A stretch of 64,000 nt of DNA from Coriobacteriia bacterium (GTDB lineage Bacteria > Actinomycetota > Coriobacteriia > Anaerosomatales > Kmv31): the NCBI GenBank assembly GCA_014859305.1, contig JACUUM010000002.1, positions 9,077 through 73,076 on the forward strand, written 5' to 3'. The notes below the pieces were generated by a model. It saw only the letters and a program-made list of their open reading frames with translations. It did no database searches and had not been told where the DNA came from. The translations under genes and the position numbers were made by a program. Below are positions 5,721-20,329 of the stretch, one piece after another; position 1 is the stretch's first letter, and every line of letters starts with the position of its first letter.

Positions 5721-6719
5721 CTACACGACCGTTTCCCTCATGCGTCCGCGAAGCACGTCCACGCTCACGCCGGCGAGCTTCCCCAGCAGCAGGGTGCGGA
5801 CGGCCTGGTTCTGCGATCGCATCGACATCACGTACGCCAGCACCGGCTCCGGCCCGACCGCGATGCGGTGGGCGCGGTGCAGGAAGCGCGCGAGCTCGGT
5901 GTCGAGCGCGACGTCGGTGCGCTCCGGGTCGACGAGCTTCTCGACCGAGGCCCGCCTGAGCTCCCCGGCACGCGCGAGCCGCTCGACGGCCTCGGGCAGC
6001 GGCAGCCGGTAGAGCGCCGCCAGGTCGCGGCGCTCGAGAGAGCCGCCCTCGGGGAGCATCGGCCACACCGCGGCCGCGGTGAGCTCGCGGGCCCGCCCGC
6101 GGACGAAGACCCTCACGTTCCCCGAGTCGATCAGCAGCCGCACCAGGTCGCGCAGGAACGCGCTGCCCGACTCCTCGGCGTTCAGCCGCATGTCGGTCAG
6201 CATCGCGGCGTCCACGACGCGGTCGGCGATCTCGGGCATCAGCTGCCCGTCCGGGCCGGCCGCCGAGGCGCGCGCCGCCGCCTCGGTCTCGGCCAGCCGT
6301 CCGGTGAGGCGACCGGTCGGGCCGAACGCCTCCGCCGGGACCCGCCCGAGCGGCTCGAGCATCTCGTCGATGGGGATGCCGAGCGCCTCGGCGCGCAGCT
6401 TGGCCTTCAGGTTGTCGTAGTCGTGCTGCACGCGCAGCAGGGACACGAAGGGCTCGGGCAGGTTCGAGCGCTCCAGGAGGTCCACGTACAGCTCCTCCAG
6501 GGCGCGGTCCAGCGCCAGCTCGACGTCCACCGAGGTGTGGGCCCGCTCCAGCAGGCCGCCGTAGACGGTCTCGGAGAGGATGCGCTTCTGGTCCTCGAAC
6601 GCAGGGGCGTCCGCCAGCCTCTCGTAGGTGCTCCGCCCGAGCAGGCGGGCCTCGAGCACGCGCACGCGCCCGACGGCGTAGCCGTAGCGCAGCGGGTCGC
6701 CTATCGCGCGCGCGAACAT
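5721..6719 (-). CDS. atpC: V/A-type ATP synthase subunit C (d-like)
   Basis: 332-aa helical protein with the position and length of subunit C between E and F. Confidence 0.85.
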   Translation of the reverse strand: MFARAIGDPLRYGYAVGRVRVLEARLLGRSTYERLADAPAFEDQKRILSETVYGGLLERAHTSVDVELALDRALEELYVDLLERSNLPEPFVSLLRVQHDYDNLKAKLRAEALGIPIDEMLEPLGRVPAEAFGPTGRLTGRLAETEAAARASAAGPDGQLMPEIADRVVDAAMLTDMRLNAEESGSAFLRDLVRLLIDSGNVRVFVRGRARELTAAAVWPMLPEGGSLERRDLAALYRLPLPEAVERLARAGELRRASVEKLVDPERTDVALDTELARFLHRAHRIAVGPEPVLAYVMSMRSQNQAVRTLLLGKLAGVSVDVLRGRMRETVV

Positions 6720-6724
6720 CCCGG

Positions 6725-7312
6725 CTATCCCTCCTCGCCGAAGAGCACCTCGGCCGCCTTGGCCGTCAGCTCCTCGGACCTTGCCCGCACCATCGCCGCG
6801 GGCGACACCTCGACGCGCATGCGCGACCCCTCCAGCATCACGCCCCGCTCCACGGGCGCGGGCTCCCGCGCGACGGTCACCTCGGGCCCTCCCGCGGCCC
6901 GCACGGCCTCCGCGAGCCTGCCGTCGAGCCGCGCGGCGTCGGCGGGTGCGATCAGCACGCGCTCCCCGCCGCGAGCACCTCTCGCCACGCCGGCCGCGAG
7001 CAGCGCGACATAGGCGTCGTCGGGCAGGGCGTCCAGTTCGCGGACGGCCTCGGACAGCGCGTGCTCGACCACCCGCCTGCGCTCGGCCACCGCCCGGTCC
7101 CGCGCGCGCAGCCTGGCCCCGGCCAGCATCGTGCGCGCCTCGGCGTCGGCCTCCGCCCTCGCGCGCGACACCGCGGCCTCCTTCTCGGCCGCCGCCCTCG
7201 CCTCGGCCTCACGGACCCGCTCCTCGGCGGCGTGCCGGGCGGACTGCACCATCGCCGCCGCCTCCCTGCGGGCGTCCGAGTGGATCCGTTCGAGTATGTC
7301 CGCCAGCGCCAC
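6725..7312 (-). CDS. atpE: V/A-type ATP synthase subunit E
   Basis: 195 aa, GTG start. The N-terminal half is an Ala/Glu/Arg-rich coiled coil, as in the peripheral stalk subunit. Operon position fits. Confidence 0.85.
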   Translation of the reverse strand: MALADILERIHSDARREAAAMVQSARHAAEERVREAEARAAAEKEAAVSRARAEADAEARTMLAGARLRARDRAVAERRRVVEHALSEAVRELDALPDDAYVALLAAGVARGARGGERVLIAPADAARLDGRLAEAVRAAGGPEVTVAREPAPVERGVMLEGSRMRVEVSPAAMVRARSEELTAKAAEVLFGEEG

Positions 7313-7315
7313 CTC

Positions 7316-7825
7316 TCACGCTCCGGCGGCCTGGGAGGCGAGCAGGAGCAGGAGGATCGTCACGATGAGCGAGAACACCGCGTACGTCTCGACCAGCGCG
7401 GGCAGGATGAGCGCCTTGCCGGCGTCCTCCTCGCGCCTGGCCACCATGCCCGCCGCGCCGACGGCTGCGGCACCCTGGTAGATGCCGCTGAACAGGCAGA
7501 TGAACGCGACCGGCAGGCACGAGAAGAAGATGCGCAGCCCCTCGGCGACGCTCAGGTCCGGCGGGCCCTCGAAGAACCCGAAGAAGATGAGCACGAGCAG
7601 CGCGGTGATCAGCCCGTAGATGCCCTGCGTGCCCGGCATCGCGATCAGCGGGAGGACCTTGCCGAACTTCTCGGGTTCCTCGGAGATGATCCCGGCGGCC
7701 GTGTTGGAGATGGTCGTGATGCCGATGGCCGAGCCGATGCCTCCTCCGATCGCCGCCAGTGCGGCGCCGAAGTAGGCCCACTCGAGCCCCCCCATCCCGG
7801 ATAAGCCCAGTATCACGTCGTTCAC
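7316..7825 (-). CDS. atpK: V/A-type ATP synthase subunit K (proteolipid)
   Basis: 169 aa with four hydrophobic helices and the motifs IGGGIGSAIG and MPGTQGIYGLITALLV. The GTG start overlaps the atpI stop (GTGA). Confidence 0.9.
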   Translation of the reverse strand: MNDVILGLSGMGGLEWAYFGAALAAIGGGIGSAIGITTISNTAAGIISEEPEKFGKVLPLIAMPGTQGIYGLITALLVLIFFGFFEGPPDLSVAEGLRIFFSCLPVAFICLFSGIYQGAAAVGAAGMVARREEDAGKALILPALVETYAVFSLIVTILLLLLASQAAGA

Positions 7826-9993
7826 GACCCGGTTCCTCCTTCCGGCCGACCCTGTGACGGGTGCAGCACCAAAGACTTCCTGCGCAGCGAGAACGGTGTG
7901 AAGTTGCGCCCGCCGCCTTCGTAGAACTTACTGAAGAACTCGACGTACTGCAGGCGCGTGGGGTGCACGAACGCGCCGAGCAGGTTGATGGTGAGGTTGA
8001 ACGCGTGGCCCACCACGATGATCAGCACCGCGAGCAGGATGCCGAGGACCGGCAGGGAGCCGGAGACCAGCCCCGCGAGGCGGTTCATCACATCCCCCAC
8101 CAGGAAGCTCGCCAGCCCTAGGGCGGCCAGGCGGGAGTACGACAGGAAGTCCGACGCGAAGCCGACCAGCCCGTAGACCCCGTACAGCCCCGTGAGCGTG
8201 CCGACGACGGCGGCCCTCGCCGCGCGCGAGACCGCCAGGCCGAGCACCGTGACGGCGAGCAGGGGCCACCCGAGGCGGACCGGCAGCGCGAAGGCCGCCG
8301 CGAGTATCCAGGCCGCCAGCAGCGCGACGAACGCCCAGCCCAGCGCCCGGTCCCACAGAGCCGCCCCTTGCGGCTTCAGCGGGGCGGCGAAGACGCGCCC
8401 CTTGGCGAACACGGTCGCCCCGAAGCCGGCCAGCAGCACCGTGGACACCGGCGCCGCGGCCGCCGCCGGCACGAGGCCGATGACGATGGCCAGCGCGTAG
8501 AGCGCCACGCCGATCACGAACACGGTGGAGAGCTCGTCGAGCACGGCGTCGGCCCACTCCCCCTCGCGGAAGTGACGGTACGCGCGCGTGAGCACCCCCA
8601 CCAGCACGTGCACGACGCCGATGGCCACGGAGAAGACCAGGAGCGGCAGGATGTCGATGGGCAGCTCTATGAGGGCGTCGTAGGCCAGCGGTCCGGGCAG
8701 CGCCGTCGAGGCGATCGAGAAGTACGAGCCCGTGGCGACACCGACGATGAACGTGGCGACGCTGCCCATCATGAGCAGGTCCATGAAGCGCTTCACGCCG
8801 TCGGCCACGTCGAGCCTGTGCTTGATCAGCCAGGCCACGGCGAAGAGCACCACCCCGTAACCGGCGTCGCTCAGCGCCATGCCGAAGAACAGGAAGAAGA
8901 ACCCCGCCAGCAGCGGCGTCGGGTCGAGCTCGCCGTAGCGCGGCCGGCCGTAGAGGTCGGTGAGCACCTCGAAGGGCCGGATGAGGCGCGGGTTGGCCAG
9001 CGTCACCGGCGGCTCCTCGGAGGGGTCGGGTCTCTCGAAGGACACGTCCACCCTGGAAGCCACCGGCTCCAGCTCCCGCAGCAGCGCGTCGCGCTCGGCC
9101 TCGACGACCCAGCCTTTGAGCACGAACGCGCGCTCGGTCGAGCCGAACGACTCCCGAAGACCGACCGCGTCGCGCCGCGACAGCAGCGACTGCACCAGGG
9201 CGACGGAGCGGTGGTAGTGGCGCGCGGAGAGGTCCCGGGCGCGCGCCACGGCCTCGGCCTCCTCCTGGTCCAGGCGTCCCAGGCGCTCCTCGGCGCGGCT
9301 GATCTCCTCGGCGGGATAGTCGCTCAAGCCCGGGAAGGAGACCTCCTCGAACTCCGTGGTCGCCAGCACCGCCTTCACCTCGGACACGACGTCGCGGTGG
9401 GCCATCACGACCCAGGCCTGCCGCTCGGCGACCACGCCGAGCTCGGCCACGGTCACCTCGTCGACGGCCCCGCGCAGCGCCTGCCGGATGTCTTCCGAGC
9501 GCGACGGGGGCACCGTGCCGGTGAACAGCGCCACGTTCTCGGTGCCGCGCCACATGGAGATCTGGAGGTGGAAGTCGCGCCATGGATGGAGGTCGTGGAC
9601 CACGTCGCTCAGGCGCTCGCGCTCGCGTTCGATGGTCGCGACGGCGTCGGCGAGCTGCTCGGCCTCCCGGTACAGTGCCCAGAAGGGCTCGTCGGCGGCC
9701 AGCGCGAGGTACTCGTCGCGGGCGATGTGCACCTTCTCGGACACGAACGTCGAGAACCGGCCGGTCATCCGGTGGTACCGCCCGAGGAAGTCCCGGACGA
9801 ACTGCGCGGAGGCGATCTGCTCGTCGAGCCCGCGCAGCCGCTCGAGGTCGGCTTCCTCCAGCCGCGGCGGCGCCTGCTCGAAGCGCTCCTCGGTGACCTC
9901 CACCGCGCCGGCGTTCTGGAGCCTGCCGACCACCTCGTCGAGGTCCGGCCGGTACCCGAACACGGTGATCCTCAGCATCCTCGCGACGGCCAT
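7822..9993 (-). CDS. atpI: V/A-type ATP synthase subunit I (a-like)
   Basis: The first 80 aa of the 803-aa track ORF are junk. The start is ATG 9993 (MAVARMLRITVFGY). It has a soluble N-terminal domain and a multi-TM C-terminal domain. Confidence 0.9.
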   Translation of the reverse strand: MAVARMLRITVFGYRPDLDEVVGRLQNAGAVEVTEERFEQAPPRLEEADLERLRGLDEQIASAQFVRDFLGRYHRMTGRFSTFVSEKVHIARDEYLALAADEPFWALYREAEQLADAVATIERERERLSDVVHDLHPWRDFHLQISMWRGTENVALFTGTVPPSRSEDIRQALRGAVDEVTVAELGVVAERQAWVVMAHRDVVSEVKAVLATTEFEEVSFPGLSDYPAEEISRAEERLGRLDQEEAEAVARARDLSARHYHRSVALVQSLLSRRDAVGLRESFGSTERAFVLKGWVVEAERDALLRELEPVASRVDVSFERPDPSEEPPVTLANPRLIRPFEVLTDLYGRPRYGELDPTPLLAGFFFLFFGMALSDAGYGVVLFAVAWLIKHRLDVADGVKRFMDLLMMGSVATFIVGVATGSYFSIASTALPGPLAYDALIELPIDILPLLVFSVAIGVVHVLVGVLTRAYRHFREGEWADAVLDELSTVFVIGVALYALAIVIGLVPAAAAAPVSTVLLAGFGATVFAKGRVFAAPLKPQGAALWDRALGWAFVALLAAWILAAAFALPVRLGWPLLAVTVLGLAVSRAARAAVVGTLTGLYGVYGLVGFASDFLSYSRLAALGLASFLVGDVMNRLAGLVSGSLPVLGILLAVLIIVVGHAFNLTINLLGAFVHPTRLQYVEFFSKFYEGGGRNFTPFSLRRKSLVLHPSQGRPEGGTGS

Positions 9994-9997
9994 GACG

Positions 9998-10303
9998 CTA
10001 CCCCGCGACCTCCCGGACGACCGCCGCGACGGCGGAGGGCAACCGCTCCTCGGCACGGCGGAGCTGTTCGGAAAGGCGCGACTCGGCGTCCCGTTCCACC
10101 TCGGCGCTCTCGACGCGTGCGCTCTCCAGCGCGCGGTCGCGGATCGCGGCGGACCGGTCGGCGGCCTCCCGTTCGGCGGCCGCCATGGCCGCCTCGGCCT
10201 CCTCGGCCGCTTCGCGCGCGATCGTGCGCGCACGCTCCCTGGCGGCGTCCATGGCGCGGCGAGCCTCTTCCTCGGCCCGCAGGATCTGGTCGAGCTTCTC
10301 CAT
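9998..10303 (-). CDS. V/A-type ATP synthase small stalk subunit (G/H)
   Basis: 101-aa Ala/Glu/Arg coiled-coil protein (MEKLDQILRAEEEARRAM...). First gene of the operon, 4 nt upstream of atpI. Confidence 0.7.
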   Translation of the reverse strand: MEKLDQILRAEEEARRAMDAARERARTIAREAAEEAEAAMAAAEREAADRSAAIRDRALESARVESAEVERDAESRLSEQLRRAEERLPSAVAAVVREVAG

Positions 10304-14931: not shown

Positions 14932-17631
14932 ATGCGACCTCGACACTCACACAGGACGTCGCCGCGCCCGGCACGGAGTCGGGCACGCCGGCTGCGTGCC
15001 GCCGCGGCGCTGGTGCTGGCCGCGGCGCTGCCTTCGGCGGCCGCAGGCGTCGGTCTGGTCTCCACGACCATCGCCATCGACGGGGACATGACCGACTGGG
15101 CCGGCGTCCTGTCCAGCGCGCCCAACGTGACCTCCGACCCCATCGGCGCCGCCGACCCCGACAACCCCGGCTCGGCGAACCGCGACCTGTGCCTGGCCGC
15201 CTACACCTGGGACGCCGAGAACCTGTACGTCTACCTGCGCCGCACCGCCAGCGGCAACAACTCCGTGCACTACATCATCTACGTCGACGTCGACAACAGC
15301 GGGACGATGAGCGACGTCGACCGCGTGGTGGACCTCAACTACAACGGGTCCGCGTTCCAGCCCGGCGGCAGCGGCGTGTTCGGTTACGCGCCGGCGGCGC
15401 CGGGCGGCGACCCGCTCGTCGGCGACGGACAGGCCATGCCCGGACGTCTCGGCGCCCCGGTCCCGGACCCCGGCCTGAACGCCTCTGCGAACGGCGACGG
15501 CATCAGGCACGAGGCGGCGATCCCATGGGCGGCGCTCGGCTTGCCGGCGGGCTCTCCCGTCCAGCTCAAGTTCGCGTGCTCCCTCAACACCAACCTGCCC
15601 GCGTCGATCCAGGACAACACGGCGGTCGCCTCGCTGATACGGCGGCAGGTGGCCGTGTCGGCGGGGACGACCAGGGGCGGCGCGGCAGGCAACGACGTCG
15701 AGTTCGCACACACGGTCACCAACCACGGCAACGTCGACGACACGTACGACCTCTCCGCCGTCTCGGCGCGAGGGTGGCCGCTGCAGCTGACGGACGAGGC
15801 CGGCTCCCCGATCGCCTCTCTCGCGATCCCCGCCGGCGGCTCGGCCGGGATCCGCGTGCGCGTGACGATCCCGGCGGGGACCGCGGACGGCACGAGGGAC
15901 ACGCTGACCGTCACCTGCACGAGCTCCTCGGCGAGCCACGTCACGGCGAGCGCGACGGACCACGCCGTCTGCGGCGAGGTCATCGTGATCCCCGATCTCA
16001 CCAACTCCGTCGCTCCCGGCTCCGTGTCGGTCTTCCGCAACACGCTGGCCAACCACGGCGACCGGACGCTCACCCTCGCGCTCACCGCCGCCTCCGACCG
16101 GGGGTGGACCGCCGAGGTCTTCGCGGCCGACGGCGTGACCCCGCTGAGCGAAGCGGTACTGCCGCCCGGAGGCTCGCGCGCCGTGCGCGTGCGCGTCCAC
16201 GTGCCCGCCGGCGCCGCGCTGGGCACCGCCGATGTCACGTCGCTGCGCGCCGTGGCCCTCGACGACCCCGGCGTCGGAGGCACCGGCAGGGACACGACGC
16301 TCGTCCGGCCAGAGCTTTCCGTGGTGCCGGACAACACGGGGACCGCCGGGGCCGGCACAGCCGTGACGTACCTCCACACGGTGACCAACAGCTCGTCCGA
16401 GACGCGCACGGTCACCCTTGACGCCACGGACTCCTCCGGGTGGCCGGTGCAGGTGCTCGAAGCCGACGGCGTCACGCCGCTGGCCTCGGTCGCACTCCCG
16501 CCGTTCGGAGGCTCCTCTCCGGTCAGGGTAAGGGTCTCGGTGCCCGCCGGTGCGGCCTCGGGGGCGGTCTCGACCACGACCCTCAGGGCCGGCTGGGGCG
16601 CGCTCACGGCCGTCGCCACCGACGTCACGACCGTCTCGACCCTCGTGTTCTTCGCGGACGGCTCCTACGCCGAACCGACGGAGCACTTCGTCCTCGGCGA
16701 CGCCGTCCACGTTCGGGCCTCGGGGCTGGCACCGGGGTCGACGGTACGCTTCCGCTGGCTTGACACCTCCGGCGCCGTCGTGCACGCCAGCCCCGACGTC
16801 CCAGTCGACACGGGGGGCCAGGCGGCCTCCTCCTACACGATCCCTGCCGCCGGCCCTCCCGGCGCGTGGACGTGCGTCCTGGTCACGAACAAGGGTGCTG
16901 AGCTCGCACGCCGCACCTTCTACGCCGGCTACAGGGCGCACATCGAGTCGGTGTCGGCTCCCGACGTGCCCTCCGCCGCCTCCGACGTCTCCGCCGATGT
17001 CGTGCTGCGCAACCACGGAGCGGTCGTCATCGCCGACTCCACCCTGACGTACCTGGTGTGGCACGACGTCGACTCCGACGGCGTGTGCTCCAACGGCGAC
17101 CTGTACGTGGACGAGGCCGGAGAGATCGCCACGTACGCCGGGACCGGCGGCGAGAGGACGCGCCTCGGCAGCGGCGTGTCCGTCCCGGCCGGCGGGAGCT
17201 GGTCGGAGCCGGCGACCTGGACGGTCCCGGCGGCGAACCTCCCCTACCCCGGCACCTACCACGTGACGGCGGAGTGGCGGGCGGCCGACGGAACGGTCAT
17301 CGACACGCGGGGGACGACGTTCCTCGCCTCGGCCTACCGCCTGACGCTCACGATCAGCGAATCCGCGCTCGACGCGGGCACCGTGGAGCCCGGCAGCACG
17401 CACGTGTTGGCTCCGGTCAACGTCGCCGTCGAGGCGAACACCCGGTTCGACCTCTACAAGGCGGTCGGGGGGGATGCGGCGCTCATGGGGCTGTCCTCGG
17501 GGCTGCTCTCCCAGGTGGACCAGTCCTCGGGCCTGCACTTCTACGTCGACTCGATCTCCCTCGACATCCCCTGGGAGGCGGAGCCGGGTCCTCTCGGCGC
17601 CGTCCTCACCTACACGGTGGTGGCTCAGTGA
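14932..17631 (+). CDS. Large secreted multidomain cell-surface protein
   Basis: 899 aa with a signal peptide (RRLRAAAALVLAAALPSAAAG). The N-terminal IDGDMTDW...NLYVYLRR looks like a sugar-binding-type beta-sandwich. Three tandem repeats of about 105 aa (xTNHG...GWP...VRVRVxxPAG) follow. The C-terminal 100 aa are homologous to the next gene product. Confidence 0.85.
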   Translation: MRPRHSHRTSPRPARSRARRLRAAAALVLAAALPSAAAGVGLVSTTIAIDGDMTDWAGVLSSAPNVTSDPIGAADPDNPGSANRDLCLAAYTWDAENLYVYLRRTASGNNSVHYIIYVDVDNSGTMSDVDRVVDLNYNGSAFQPGGSGVFGYAPAAPGGDPLVGDGQAMPGRLGAPVPDPGLNASANGDGIRHEAAIPWAALGLPAGSPVQLKFACSLNTNLPASIQDNTAVASLIRRQVAVSAGTTRGGAAGNDVEFAHTVTNHGNVDDTYDLSAVSARGWPLQLTDEAGSPIASLAIPAGGSAGIRVRVTIPAGTADGTRDTLTVTCTSSSASHVTASATDHAVCGEVIVIPDLTNSVAPGSVSVFRNTLANHGDRTLTLALTAASDRGWTAEVFAADGVTPLSEAVLPPGGSRAVRVRVHVPAGAALGTADVTSLRAVALDDPGVGGTGRDTTLVRPELSVVPDNTGTAGAGTAVTYLHTVTNSSSETRTVTLDATDSSGWPVQVLEADGVTPLASVALPPFGGSSPVRVRVSVPAGAASGAVSTTTLRAGWGALTAVATDVTTVSTLVFFADGSYAEPTEHFVLGDAVHVRASGLAPGSTVRFRWLDTSGAVVHASPDVPVDTGGQAASSYTIPAAGPPGAWTCVLVTNKGAELARRTFYAGYRAHIESVSAPDVPSAASDVSADVVLRNHGAVVIADSTLTYLVWHDVDSDGVCSNGDLYVDEAGEIATYAGTGGERTRLGSGVSVPAGGSWSEPATWTVPAANLPYPGTYHVTAEWRAADGTVIDTRGTTFLASAYRLTLTISESALDAGTVEPGSTHVLAPVNVAVEANTRFDLYKAVGGDAALMGLSSGLLSQVDQSSGLHFYVDSISLDIPWEAEPGPLGAVLTYTVVAQ

Positions 17632-17800
17632 GCCGCCGGAGATCAACGCTCGCCGCCTTCGGCCCCTCGCACATCCGGGCGCGGTGGCCGGGGGGCGGGC
17701 TGCACATAGAGGGGGGTGGTCCCTGAGAGACGACCACTCCGCAGAACCACGTGTTCGAGAGTCACGTACATGTCAGCAGGTAGTTGGAAGGAGAAGGACC

Positions 17801-18268
17801 ATGAAGAGAACGTTGATGGCAGGGTTCCTGGCAGTGGTGCTGGTCGCCGGGCTCGTCACGACAGCGACCGCAGCCCCGCAGTCCTTCAGCGGGAACCTCG
17901 TCGGGGGCAAGTGGCAGGCCGGCCCCGGCGACGTGGTCGTCACCGCCGCCGTGAACCCGAAGGTCGAGCTCACGCTCTCCGAAGACCTGGTCGACGCCGG
18001 CGCCCTCGACCCCGACATCCCCGCACCGCAGTGGACGCTCGCGGTGAACGTGGATACAGCGGCCAACGTGCCCTGTGACCTGACCAAGAGCGTCGTGACC
18101 GACATGGACGGCATCGCGACGCCGCTGTTCGAGTCGGACCTGGCAGCGCTCATCGCCGATATCCGCGGCGTGAACAACTACACCGACAACTACGCCATCT
18201 CGGTCGGCTACGACACGGACCCGGGCAACTACAGCGCGACCGTCACCTACACGCTGGTCCAGAGGTAA
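17801..18268 (+). CDS. Small secreted protein, WxL-like module (paralogue of the C-terminus of the 899-aa protein)
   Basis: ATG 17801 follows GGAAGGAGAAGG. Signal peptide MKRTLMAGFLAVVLVAGLVTTATA. VELTLSEDLVDAG...VNVDTAANVPCDLTK...YSATVTYTLVQR aligns with residues 803-899 of the upstream protein. Confidence 0.8.
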   Translation: MKRTLMAGFLAVVLVAGLVTTATAAPQSFSGNLVGGKWQAGPGDVVVTAAVNPKVELTLSEDLVDAGALDPDIPAPQWTLAVNVDTAANVPCDLTKSVVTDMDGIATPLFESDLAALIADIRGVNNYTDNYAISVGYDTDPGNYSATVTYTLVQR

Positions 18269-18286: not shown

Positions 18287-18323
18287 GAAGGTCCCGCCGT
18301 CCGTCCCGGGCGGCGGGACCTTC
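18287..18323. terminator. Bidirectional hairpin between convergent genes
   Basis: Perfect 13-bp stem GAAGGTCCCGCCG / CGGCGGGACCTTC with an 11-nt loop, between the stops at 18268 and 18356. No U-tract. Confidence 0.55.
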
Positions 18324-18355: not shown

Positions 18356-19432
18356 CTAAGCCGTCCGGTCCACGCTCCGCTCGTCCGGCGGCCCGGCGGA
18401 GTCGGAAGGCGGGGGTCCGTCCCCGCGCTCGCGACGCATGCGGTCCCTCCCTCGGGAGCCCTCCGCACGGGCGCGGCGCCGGGCGGCGAAGACGGCGAGC
18501 CGCCAGAGCAGCCACAGAGCCATGAGCCCCGCCGCCCCGGCCGCGGCGCCTATAGCCCATGCCGGGACGATCCAGACGGCCCGCTCCTCGACGATGCTCT
18601 CGGTCGATCCGCCGTCCTCGGTCCGGTACTCGACCACCAGACGGGCGACGTGCTTGCCGACCACGTCCCCCTCCAGATCGAGTCGCCCTCCGCCGGACAG
18701 GTCCGTGCCTGCGTACACGGTGGTCTCGGTCATGACCGAGCTGCCGGCCCTCTCGACGCCGCCGGGTCCCGACAGGATCAGGGCGGCGCGCACACGCTTG
18801 TCGATGTTGCCCGTGTTGCGCACGGCGAAGCTGTAGGGGAGGTTGTCCCCGGTGACCAGCGCGTCGGTGGTGAACGAGCCTATGCTCAACCGCTCGACGA
18901 CCTCGCCGCGTACGCGCGTCTTCAGCCTCGTCCCGATGCGTCCGGAGACCCGCGAGATGGACCCGCCGGCTACCGGGTCGAGCGAGGCCATCTCGAAGAA
19001 GATGACGCTGTTGTGATCGCCCGGCGGGGTGTTGGGCGGTACCTCGAACCGGAACTTGACGGGCACCTTCTCTCCGGCCTCGAGTTCCATGTACGGCGTG
19101 TTGCCCACGGCCTTGGCCCGTTTGGGCAGCTCGAGCCGGACCCAGCTGGCCGGCCCGGCGAAGGCCGTCATGCTCTCGCGGTCGGGGGTGGTGAAGGTCA
19201 ACTCCCCGGTCTCGCCGACCTCCTGGTCCGCAACGTAGACCAGCACGGTCATCGGCTCGCTGCCCTCGTTCATGACCACGACCTCGCCCTCGCCGCTCCC
19301 GCCGGCCTCTACGTCGAAGCGGAAGCTGAGCGCCGAGAGCGCGATGGTGCGCTGGGCGGCCGCGGGCGCCGGCGCGAGTAGCGCCGCGGCCAGGAGTATC
19401 GGCGCGAGCGGCCGCCAGCGGCCGCGCCTCAT
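18356..19432 (-). CDS. Signal-peptide, beta-sandwich, C-terminally TM-anchored surface protein (DUF916/DUF3324-like architecture)
   Basis: 358 aa. Signal peptide RPLAPILLAAALLAPAPAAAQ. FRFDVEAGGSGEGEVVVMNEGSEPMTVLVYV...VKFRFEVPPNTPPGDHNSVIFFEM. TM helix WAIGAAAGAAGLMALWLLW followed by a basic tail. The ATG overlaps the regulator stop (ATGA). Confidence 0.75.
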   Translation of the reverse strand: MRRGRWRPLAPILLAAALLAPAPAAAQRTIALSALSFRFDVEAGGSGEGEVVVMNEGSEPMTVLVYVADQEVGETGELTFTTPDRESMTAFAGPASWVRLELPKRAKAVGNTPYMELEAGEKVPVKFRFEVPPNTPPGDHNSVIFFEMASLDPVAGGSISRVSGRIGTRLKTRVRGEVVERLSIGSFTTDALVTGDNLPYSFAVRNTGNIDKRVRAALILSGPGGVERAGSSVMTETTVYAGTDLSGGGRLDLEGDVVGKHVARLVVEYRTEDGGSTESIVEERAVWIVPAWAIGAAAGAAGLMALWLLWRLAVFAARRRARAEGSRGRDRMRRERGDGPPPSDSAGPPDERSVDRTA

Positions 19433-20169
19433 ATCCCTACCGCCTCGCGGAACGCGCGGGCCTGGCGCCGTGCGACCGGGATGTGCGTCTCGTCCCGGTC
19501 GCCGGCGACCACGACGTAGCCGCCGTCCAGCCGAAGTATCTCCTTGATCCGGTTGAGGTTGATCATGTAGCTGCGGTGCAGCCTGTTGAAGGCGTCCTTG
19601 GACAGCTTGCGCTCCAGGTCGGTGAGGGTGAGGTCCACGAGGTACTGGTTCTCGTAGGTGTGCACGTACGTGGACTTGTTGCGGGCCGAGACGAAGACGA
19701 TGTCGTCGATGTTGAGCAGGACGGTCCGGCCGCCCTTGCGCACCGCCAGCTTGCGGAACTCCCCCTCGCCGCCCGCCCCCTGCTGGGCGGACTGACGCCC
19801 CGAGCGCGCGAGGCTCTGAACCCGCGCGGAGAGCTCGAGGATGCTGAAGGGCTTGGTCACGTACTGCTGGACGCCCTGCTTGAAAGCCAGGATCTTCGCG
19901 AGGTCCTGCGTCTTGGCGGTGAGCATGATGACGGGGATGTCAGCGGTCATGGGGTCGTTGCGGATCTCCATCAGCGTCATCCAGCCGTCGACCCGGGGCA
20001 TCATGATGTCCAGGACGACGACATCGACCGGTTCCCGGCCCAGCACGTCCAGGGCCTCGGCGCCGTCGCCCGCGCCGAGCACGCGCATGCCGTCGGCCTC
20101 CAGTCCCATCCGGATCATCTCGACGACCGAAGCGTCGTCGTCGACGACGAGGACGTTGACTCCCTCCAT
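19429..20169 (-). CDS. LytTR-family response regulator (receiver + LytTR DNA-binding domain), no cognate kinase nearby
   Basis: Start ATG 20169 (MEGVNVLVVDDD) follows GGAGG. The receiver has VVVLDIMMP and KPF. The LytTR domain is IDDIVFVSARNKSTYVHT...FNRLHRSYMINLNRI. Confidence 0.9.
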   Translation of the reverse strand: MEGVNVLVVDDDASVVEMIRMGLEADGMRVLGAGDGAEALDVLGREPVDVVVLDIMMPRVDGWMTLMEIRNDPMTADIPVIMLTAKTQDLAKILAFKQGVQQYVTKPFSILELSARVQSLARSGRQSAQQGAGGEGEFRKLAVRKGGRTVLLNIDDIVFVSARNKSTYVHTYENQYLVDLTLTDLERKLSKDAFNRLHRSYMINLNRIKEILRLDGGYVVVAGDRDETHIPVARRQARAFREAVGI

Positions 20170-20329
20170 GGGTGCCTCCGACTGAAAAGGGCCCGGCGTG
20201 GGCACGCTCGAGCCGACTCCGCACGTCGCCCCTGGAGGGAGTATACAGTACGGACGGGCCCCCACGGTGGCGAGCGGGGAGCCTCGGACGAGGCCGGTCG
20301 CCGACCGAACCGGACGCGCCGGCTCCCGG

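Follow-up and report, generated by a model that had tools for sequence, protein, structure and literature searches.

We analyzed a 64,000-nucleotide (nt) stretch of the genome of an uncultured Coriobacteriia bacterium, a monoderm actinobacterium (assembly GCA_014859305.1, contig JACUUM010000002.1, positions 9,077 to 73,076; hereafter "the window", with coordinates counted from its first letter). In this window, a large and a small secreted protein end in a similar module next to a gene for a protein that resembles WxLIP, the membrane-anchored partner that holds WxL domains at the Firmicutes surface. The large protein (899 amino acids [aa]; 14932–17631, [+] strand) is encoded by an open reading frame (ORF) with Pfam domains and is identical to protein IBX62_00570 of a Coriobacteriia metagenome-assembled genome (MAG). 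Its N-terminal signal-like segment is followed by ~750 aa of Ig-like repeats (FixG_C, Ig_VWA7, NPCBM_assoc, and MG2-like by Pfam) and by the C-terminal module (residues ~803–899; 17338–17628, [+] strand; end ...GAVLTYTVVAQ), which was delimited by BLASTP and matched by the module hidden Markov model (HMM) with an E-value of 6e-23. Two orthologues (P0003 and P0004) share 55–59% identity with this protein, and both carry the C-terminal module. The ORF of the small protein (155 aa; 17801–18268, [+] strand; identical to IBX62_00575) follows a Shine-Dalgarno-like sequence, GGAAGGAGAAGG, read just 5′ of its ATG (17786–17797, [+] strand). The small protein has a signal peptide at residues 1–24 (MKRTLMAGFLAVVLVAGLVTTATA), and the mature form (131 aa, isoelectric point [pI] 4.05) comprises an N-terminal extension and the module, whose core was placed by alignment at residues 55–155 (17963–18265, [+] strand; module HMM E-value of 1e-28) and which ends in ...YSATVTYTLVQR. 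On the opposite strand lie the gene for the WxLIP-like protein (358 aa; 18356–19432, [−] strand), assigned from its ORF, the alignment of its orthologues and hhalign, and a gene for a LytTR-type response regulator (19429–20265, [−] strand; Pfam Response_reg and LytTR), the stop codon of which overlaps the WxLIP-like start codon in an ATGA at 19429–19432.

A preliminary description of this DNA, made from the sequence alone, had claimed that the C-terminus of the large protein recurs as the small protein, and our results bear this out. BLASTP aligned residues 781–899 of the large protein with residues 37–155 of the small one (31% identity, 50% positives, E-value of 3e-10), with both segments reaching the C-terminal end of their proteins. 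The Smith-Waterman score of the pair was 128, in comparison with a mean of 29.5 (standard deviation [SD] 5.2, maximum 53) for 2,000 shuffles (z = 19), so that the similarity also stands clear of the shuffled controls by which the description had proposed to judge it. The description further spoke of a duplication, which holds in the sense of an ancient paralogy and not in that of a recent event. Specifically, we found no nucleotide repeat in register between the two module regions; the large module of the window shares 46–47% identity with the large modules of two related loci (L001 and L002) versus 31% with its own small neighbour; and large-type modules group apart from small-type modules in a neighbour-joining tree. 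The lack of an in-register DNA repeat and the separate large and small clades rule out recent tandem duplication or gene conversion, and, judged from these comparisons, the large and small modules are ancient paralogues. The age of this paralogy, like the analogy to WxL clusters set out below, had been missed.

The fold of the module was predicted in two AlphaFold2 models built from non-overlapping alignments, one of small proteins only and the other of large proteins only. The small-protein model reached a predicted local distance difference test (pLDDT) score of 85–94 over residues 50–155, and the large-protein model, covering the last 235 residues, had a mean pLDDT of 90.2; in this 235-aa construct, the module follows strand 140 as a beta-sandwich of its own. 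Both models are all-beta with the same strand order, and the strand/non-strand state agrees at 80% of the aligned positions. Unrelated folds would have spoken against a shared module according to the preliminary description, and the two models instead agree with each other.

We found no counterpart of the module in current libraries: neither Pfam nor NCBIfam returned a family match for the module or the small protein, a PDB sequence profile search returned no match, and a word-indexed homology search with the small protein as the query retrieved only the protein itself. Homologues of the small protein were reached only via an alignment built from the syntenic loci of large-protein relatives. 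This alignment of syntenic modules led to 22 small proteins, none of them with a Pfam domain and, where named, all of Coriobacteriia origin. An exhaustive module profile search of 1.84 billion representatives (clusters at 50% identity) then recovered 304 clusters at an E-value of ≤1e-3 and 123 at ≤1e-10. Nearly all named members of this family belong to the Coriobacteriia/Actinomycetota, with one MAG labelled Elusimicrobia. The module sits at the extreme C-terminus in essentially every one among the matches listed, the exceptions there being P0128 and P0103 (partial or repeat-type). Most of the module proteins are small (130–170 aa), while others form a ~265-aa class or are large Ig-repeat proteins of 413–900 aa, and the parts that precede the module differ in size and kind (277, 413, 545, and 761–900 aa). 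In 146 members, Pfam (with the 25 most frequent of 119 matched families listed) placed no family over the module itself; DUF2808 and Ig-like families fell in the N-terminal parts of longer members, together with three very weak DUF4402 matches. We conclude that the module is a real, ancient, and unannotated domain family.

Several members deserve separate mention. An N-terminal DUF2808 is combined with the C-terminal module in nine members of the ~265-aa class (P0106 and eight others). In one locus (L092, 842–1675), a 277-aa protein of this size class, with no Pfam match on record, occupies the position that the large gene has elsewhere and may be a further case. P0103 is a 2333-aa BACON-repeat protein with a type IX secretion system (T9SS) sorting tail, in which 14 stretches match the module profile at module positions 33–109. 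The C-terminal half of the module may resemble BACON repeats, or the match may be a compositional effect, and we left P0103 out of the family given its different architecture with the T9SS tail. One member bears the JGI name "spore coat protein U-like", a label that we rejected, with no SCPU match in the Pfam listing of members.

Two distant homologues of the large protein show what can stand in the place of the module. P0005 and P0006 share 36–38% identity with the large protein over 85–88% of its length without having the module, and they end instead in IPTLG or IPALG, a hydrophobic helix, and RRRD. A gene for an XrtG-like exosortase comes directly after each of their genes, with overlapping stop and start codons; these exosortases scored 82–93 bits against TIGR03110 (cut-off of 102.75) and passed the exo_archaeo signature. 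P0005 and P0006 resemble the XrtG-dependent surface proteins of Gram-positive bacteria in combining a sorting signal of three parts with an exosortase gene of the XrtG-like type beside it, whereas no exosortase gene lies beside the large gene in the window or in the other module-type loci, and the large protein of the window has no C-terminal transmembrane (TM) sorting signal, ending in a soluble module. The exchange of the module for a sorting signal in P0005 and P0006 points to an anchoring role and indicates that this protein family encodes surface anchoring at its C-terminus. In both loci (L003, 8001–15742; L006, 8001–15602), the exosortase is followed by a GT2 glycosyltransferase, a PMT_2 glycosyltransferase, and a methyltransferase, and it is possible that the cassette combines XrtG sorting and glycosylation with an uncatalogued C-terminal signal. 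L006 also keeps the genes for a small module protein, a WxLIP-like protein, and a regulator nearby.

The 358-aa neighbour comprises a signal peptide, a PGBD/DUF916-like domain (residues ~33–166; 18935–19336, [−] strand, by hhalign alignment), a second beta domain, a TM helix (residues 292–317), and an Arg-rich cytoplasmic tail. This is the architecture of a WxLIP, and the length of the protein lies inside the published WxLIP range of 337–365 aa (PMC10599100). PF06030 (WxLIP_PGBD) matched three of four orthologues with 20.9–25.7 bits, below the cut-off of 27.3 (E-values of 1.2e-5 to 3.9e-4), with matches that span profile positions 15–113 of 121 directly after the signal peptide; a fifth orthologue (L078) has a weak precomputed PF06030 match. 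As a reference, we assembled 68 Bacilli loci carrying the published WxLIP motif NQIDKxxxYFDLK and extracted from them 56 WxLIPs, 54 small WxL proteins, and 13 C-termini of large WxL proteins, examples of which were verified with Pfam. In hhalign, an alignment of four Coriobacteriia sequences matched the 56 WxLIPs with 95.9% probability (E-value of 6.4e-9) in the PGBD alone, and an alignment of 14 Coriobacteriia sequences matched them with 97.4% probability (E-value of 1.5e-11) over 261 colinear columns running through the PGBD, the HBD, and the TM helix. The alignment places SFRFDV of the 358-aa protein opposite the YFDLK part of the WxLIP motif. Negative controls (a reversed profile, the Ig repeats of the large protein, the module, and small WxL proteins) gave at most 20.6% with E-values of ≥1e-3, at least five orders of magnitude worse than the WxLIP match. 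This profile evidence identifies the 358-aa protein as a remote WxLIP (DUF916/DUF3324) homologue.

WxL clusters display adhesins independently of sortases in a way that is poorly understood, and nearly all descriptions of them come from Bacilli, with 91% of the known sequences belonging to Firmicutes. Such a cluster has been defined as a minimum of one WxLIP together with two WxL proteins within four genes, where a small WxL protein consists of the domain alone and a large one carries it at the C-terminus after Ig-like or adhesin domains (Hassan, Chaudhuri & Williamson 2023; PMC9772566, PMC10599100). With the large, small, and WxLIP-like genes adjacent, the locus matches the layout of this definition and shares the three components within four genes with the WxL/Csc clusters of Lactobacillales and Bacillales (PF13731, PF06030, PF11797); calling it a WxL cluster requires that the module be taken as equivalent to the WxL domain. 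The likeness extends to each component. The small secreted protein is nearly the domain alone and acidic (pI 4.05), like small WxL proteins in general; the large secreted protein has the module at the extreme C-terminus after Ig-like repeats; and the remaining partner, remotely homologous to WxLIP, is a type-I membrane protein of ~350 aa that has two beta domains. The placement of the module, C-terminal in secreted proteins that occur in small domain-only and large multi-domain forms, is likewise WxL-like. The differences are that the module measures ~100 aa in comparison with about 120–190 aa for the WxL domain, that neither of the two Trp-x-Leu motifs is conserved in it, that PF13731 does not match it, that the WxLIP-like protein falls below the Pfam threshold, that the cluster contains no LPxTG protein, that the WxLIP-like gene has translational coupling to one for a LytTR response regulator, and that the host belongs to the Coriobacteriia of environmental MAGs rather than being a Bacillus-class organism of gut or food.

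The layout is conserved in more than 12 loci. A large gene, one or two small genes, and then convergent WxLIP-like and LytTR regulator genes were found in this order in eight loci (L001, L002, L075, L078, L083, L084, L090, and L092), and the same order without the large gene in three (L077, L085, and L087). In addition, adjacent NCBI accessions of one Actinomycetota MAG encode a large module protein and a small module-only protein. The organization of the locus holds even as the part in front of the module ranges from 277 to 900 aa. The WxLIP-like gene is convergent to the module gene(s) in all contigs with enough flank except L089. A search of metagenomes with a degenerate DNA pattern yielded nine loci, and those with readable flanks (L083–L085, L087, and L088) show the same syntenic neighbourhood.

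These observations make it somewhat probable, in our judgment, that the shared module serves a WxL-type surface-display cluster as its common docking domain and is captured by the WxLIP-like membrane protein. The preliminary description had already proposed a docking domain, with the 358-aa protein as a candidate partner, and the comparative evidence supports that proposal well: the C-terminal position of the module, the variable N-terminal parts in front of it, the swap for a sorting signal, and the WxLIP-like neighbour. By analogy, the locus has the look of an actinobacterial form of the WxL surface-display system that had so far gone unrecognised. In such a system, the large and small proteins would leave the cell via Sec export, and the WxLIP-like type-I membrane protein would most likely capture the module on the outer side of the membrane or wall. 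Capture would probably proceed by beta-strand complementation, as predicted for WxL-WxLIP pairs, in which AlphaFold has a WxLIP strand complete the WxL sandwich (PMC10599100); contact with peptidoglycan might be added to it. The ~750 residues of Ig-like repeats would thereby be displayed outward, and the small protein would occupy or extend the same docking platform. The physical interaction between the module and the WxLIP-like protein, its strand-complementation geometry, and any cell-wall binding are what we infer here.

A number of results weigh against this docking reading. On the side of the membrane partner, PF06030 did not match the 358-aa protein of the window itself at an E-value of ≤10; the second domain taken alone is not detectably homologous to the HBD/DUF3324 (hhalign probability of 0.7%), and PF11797 has no match in the 358-aa family; and NQIDKxxxYFDLK is absent, with A-L-S-x-G-S-F-x-F-x-V at its position. 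On the side of the module, PF13731 matched neither of the two window proteins at an E-value of ≤1, and WxL was not among the 25 most frequent of the 119 Pfam families listed for the 146 members (E-value of ≤10). The 146-sequence module profile aligned with the small and large WxL sets at probabilities of 3–5% (P = 0.008–0.013) and in the last hairpin only, which is the level of the reversed-sequence control (P = 0.014), whereas small and large WxL proteins, the positive control, matched each other at 99.7%. None of the 146 members has WxL near its end. Foldseek found no significant match in the PDB for the module alone (weak pilin-like hits) and, for the two-domain construct, non-specific matches to generic tandem Ig/FnIII domains (RbmA and transglutaminase C-terminal domains). 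Moreover, the locus L089 encodes a 761-aa module protein for which neither the 1.7 kb upstream nor the 8 kb downstream contains a WxLIP-like gene, and the loci with readable flanks, except L081, share one neighbourhood (ACT-DUF711 ... LytTR regulator-GltD), so that the co-occurrence of module and WxLIP-like genes may partly reflect common descent.

These results do not establish the module as a member of the WxL family. The distal WxL motif is YXXX(L/I/V)TWXLXXXP, and the WxL domain has two conserved Trp-x-Leu motifs (PMC5817068). The module carries the pattern Yxxx[LIV]T-Y-x-[LIV] at a positionally equivalent site, which lines up with YxxxLT-W-x-L, with "g.YsatVtYTv" of the module in register with "g.Y..tltWtL" of both WxL sets, at noise-level scores. 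Y-x-[LIVA] occupies the distal position in 130 of the 146 members, and the longer Yxxx[LIV]xYx[LIVA] occurs in 70. A W-T-L is present at residue 78 of the small protein of the window and otherwise only in its closest relative, P0012 (L002). As to the sensitivity of PF13731, genuine small WxL proteins scored 124–237 bits. At an E-value of ≤0.001, PF13731 missed one genuine large WxL protein, from Gottfriedia solisilvae (L012, 202–1893, [−] strand; end ...YTTDINWTLIDAP), so that large-type WxL domains are under-detected by this Pfam model.

The same evidence can be read in other ways, chiefly as direct wall binding or as fibre assembly. The module might bind peptidoglycan or a secondary wall polymer by itself, as was initially suggested for WxL domains, with a separate role for the WxLIP-like protein, a possibility that we consider doubtful. 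The C-terminal position and the replacement by a sorting signal fit any anchoring domain, WxL domains have been reported to bind peptidoglycan non-covalently (Brinster 2007, reviewed in PMC5817068), and the module protein of L089 has no WxLIP-like gene nearby. However, the module has no Pfam similarity to LysM, SH3b, SLH, CWB, or other wall-binding domains, and the WxLIP-like gene is tightly conserved beside the module genes in all other loci with enough flank.

Co-assembly by strand exchange was the other suggestion of the preliminary description; in the form of a fibre or pilus-like structure built by donor-strand exchange, it appears unlikely. The small proteins would polymerise via the N-terminal strand that is conserved among them; the large protein has no such free strand and would cap the fibre as a tip adhesin with a C-terminal "pilin" domain, in the manner of PapG and FimH; and the WxLIP-like protein would serve as a membrane-tethered chaperone or base. 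Chaperone-usher pili do offer parallels, since the C-terminal domain of their large adhesins (PapG/FimH) is homologous to small free-standing subunits and their PapD chaperones are partners of two Ig-like domains. The best, weak PDB matches of the small-protein model are to the PapG pilin domain (E-value of 0.012, TM-score of 0.40–0.51), FimF/FimG, PapA, Caf1, and CsuA/B. A segment directly after the signal peptide, G-x-V-T-V-x-A-x-V-N-P, is among the best-conserved parts of the small proteins and is left without an assigned strand in the monomer model (pLDDT of <60), while in the large proteins the last strand of the preceding domain occupies the position of this N-terminal strand. The strand that a WxLIP is predicted to contribute to a genuine WxL sandwich also fits a donor-strand mechanism (PMC10599100), as do the several loci with two or three tandem small module genes (L078, L081, L082, and L086). 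On the other hand, none of the Foldseek matches reaches significance, and pilins are easily matched by Ig-like folds; the large-protein model shows its module, in context, as a complete sandwich (pLDDT of ~90); and Pfam detected no usher, PapD, sortase, or other polymerisation machinery in the locus. The module differs from chaperone-usher subunits in having no significant sequence or structure match to them, and its monoderm host differs in having neither usher nor outer membrane, with a partner that is membrane-anchored. A broader proposal is that the module together with its WxLIP-like neighbour makes up the monoderm equivalent of donor-strand-complemented pili, with a fibre of small subunits, a large adhesin at the tip, and a tethered two-domain "chaperone" holding it at the membrane. 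This seems to us rather unlikely; were the fibre reading true, the WxL clusters of Firmicutes and the Coriobacteriia system would be two branches of an ancient usher-free and sortase-free mechanism of fibre assembly or docking.

It is very unlikely that the module is a generic Ig-like domain without a docking role and that the small proteins are matrix- or S-layer-like proteins sharing merely an old fold. The matches of the two-domain model to RbmA and transglutaminase C-terminal domains would suit such a spacer, but its strictly terminal position, the terminal motif, the pairing with a small paralogue and a WxLIP-like protein, and the exchange for a sorting signal would be unexpected. Finally, a chance or compositional similarity of Thr/Val/Ala-rich ends, conceivable in proteins rich in A, V, T, and G from DNA of 72% G+C, is practically negligible, being refuted by a z-score of 19 against composition-preserving shuffles, the compositionally adjusted BLASTP E-value of 3e-10, the 304-cluster family recovered by profile search, and the agreement of independent structure models.

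The locus brings a recognisable WxLIP-type membrane partner to deep-branching, mostly uncultured Coriobacteriia and pairs it with a module that is much smaller (~100 aa) and escapes current domain libraries. If the docking reading is true, what is conserved at the core of the system would be the membrane partner and not the WxL motifs, structural work on WxL-type capture would gain a minimal unit in the module, and many "hypothetical" surface proteins of Actinomycetota MAGs could be annotated. The exchange of the module and an XrtG sorting signal on otherwise homologous proteins is also of use as a natural evolutionary experiment on alternative anchoring routes.

The regulator and WxLIP-like genes are paired in ten loci besides the window (L001, L006, L075, L078, L083–L085, L087, L090, and L092), and the ATGA overlap also occurs in L001, L078, L083–L085, L087, L090, and L092. 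No histidine kinase gene is adjacent to the LytTR regulator gene, and a gene for a GltD-like oxidoreductase comes next; translational coupling of an orphan regulator with what appears to be a surface-anchor gene is unusual. In L081, a 771-aa ORF with a weak module match (6044–7797, [−] strand) takes the place of the regulator upstream of the WxLIP-like gene. In L006 (4945–5241) and L090 (10205–10513), the WxLIP-like gene is separated from that of the small module protein by coding sequence for extra secreted proteins of ~100 aa. These proteins (L006_98 begins ...GTVTVTARVNALASV) resemble the first strand of the module alone and are missed by the module HMM; they may be truncated or divergent paralogues.

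Between the convergent small and 358-aa genes of the window, a gap of 87 nt contains a perfect 13-bp inverted repeat, GAAGGTCCCGCCG / CGGCGGGACCTTC, with an 11-nt loop (18287–18323; noted by reading the sequence and not assigned to a strand), which is probably a candidate bidirectional terminator. It has no T-run, and a consensus terminator scan, which requires one, was therefore silent at this position. An antisense ORF of 899 aa (14947–17646, [−] strand) lies opposite the 899-aa gene, and the window contains many more long shadow ORFs, which follow from its G+C content of 72% and are no evidence of overlapping genes. A similar case occurs in L075 (Coriobacteriaceae bacterium EMTCatB1), where a 462-aa protein has been called at 8786–10174 ([+] strand) over the WxLIP-like gene at 8885–9949 ([−] strand; HMM E-value of 2e-130); the call is likely a shadow-ORF miscall in high-GC DNA.

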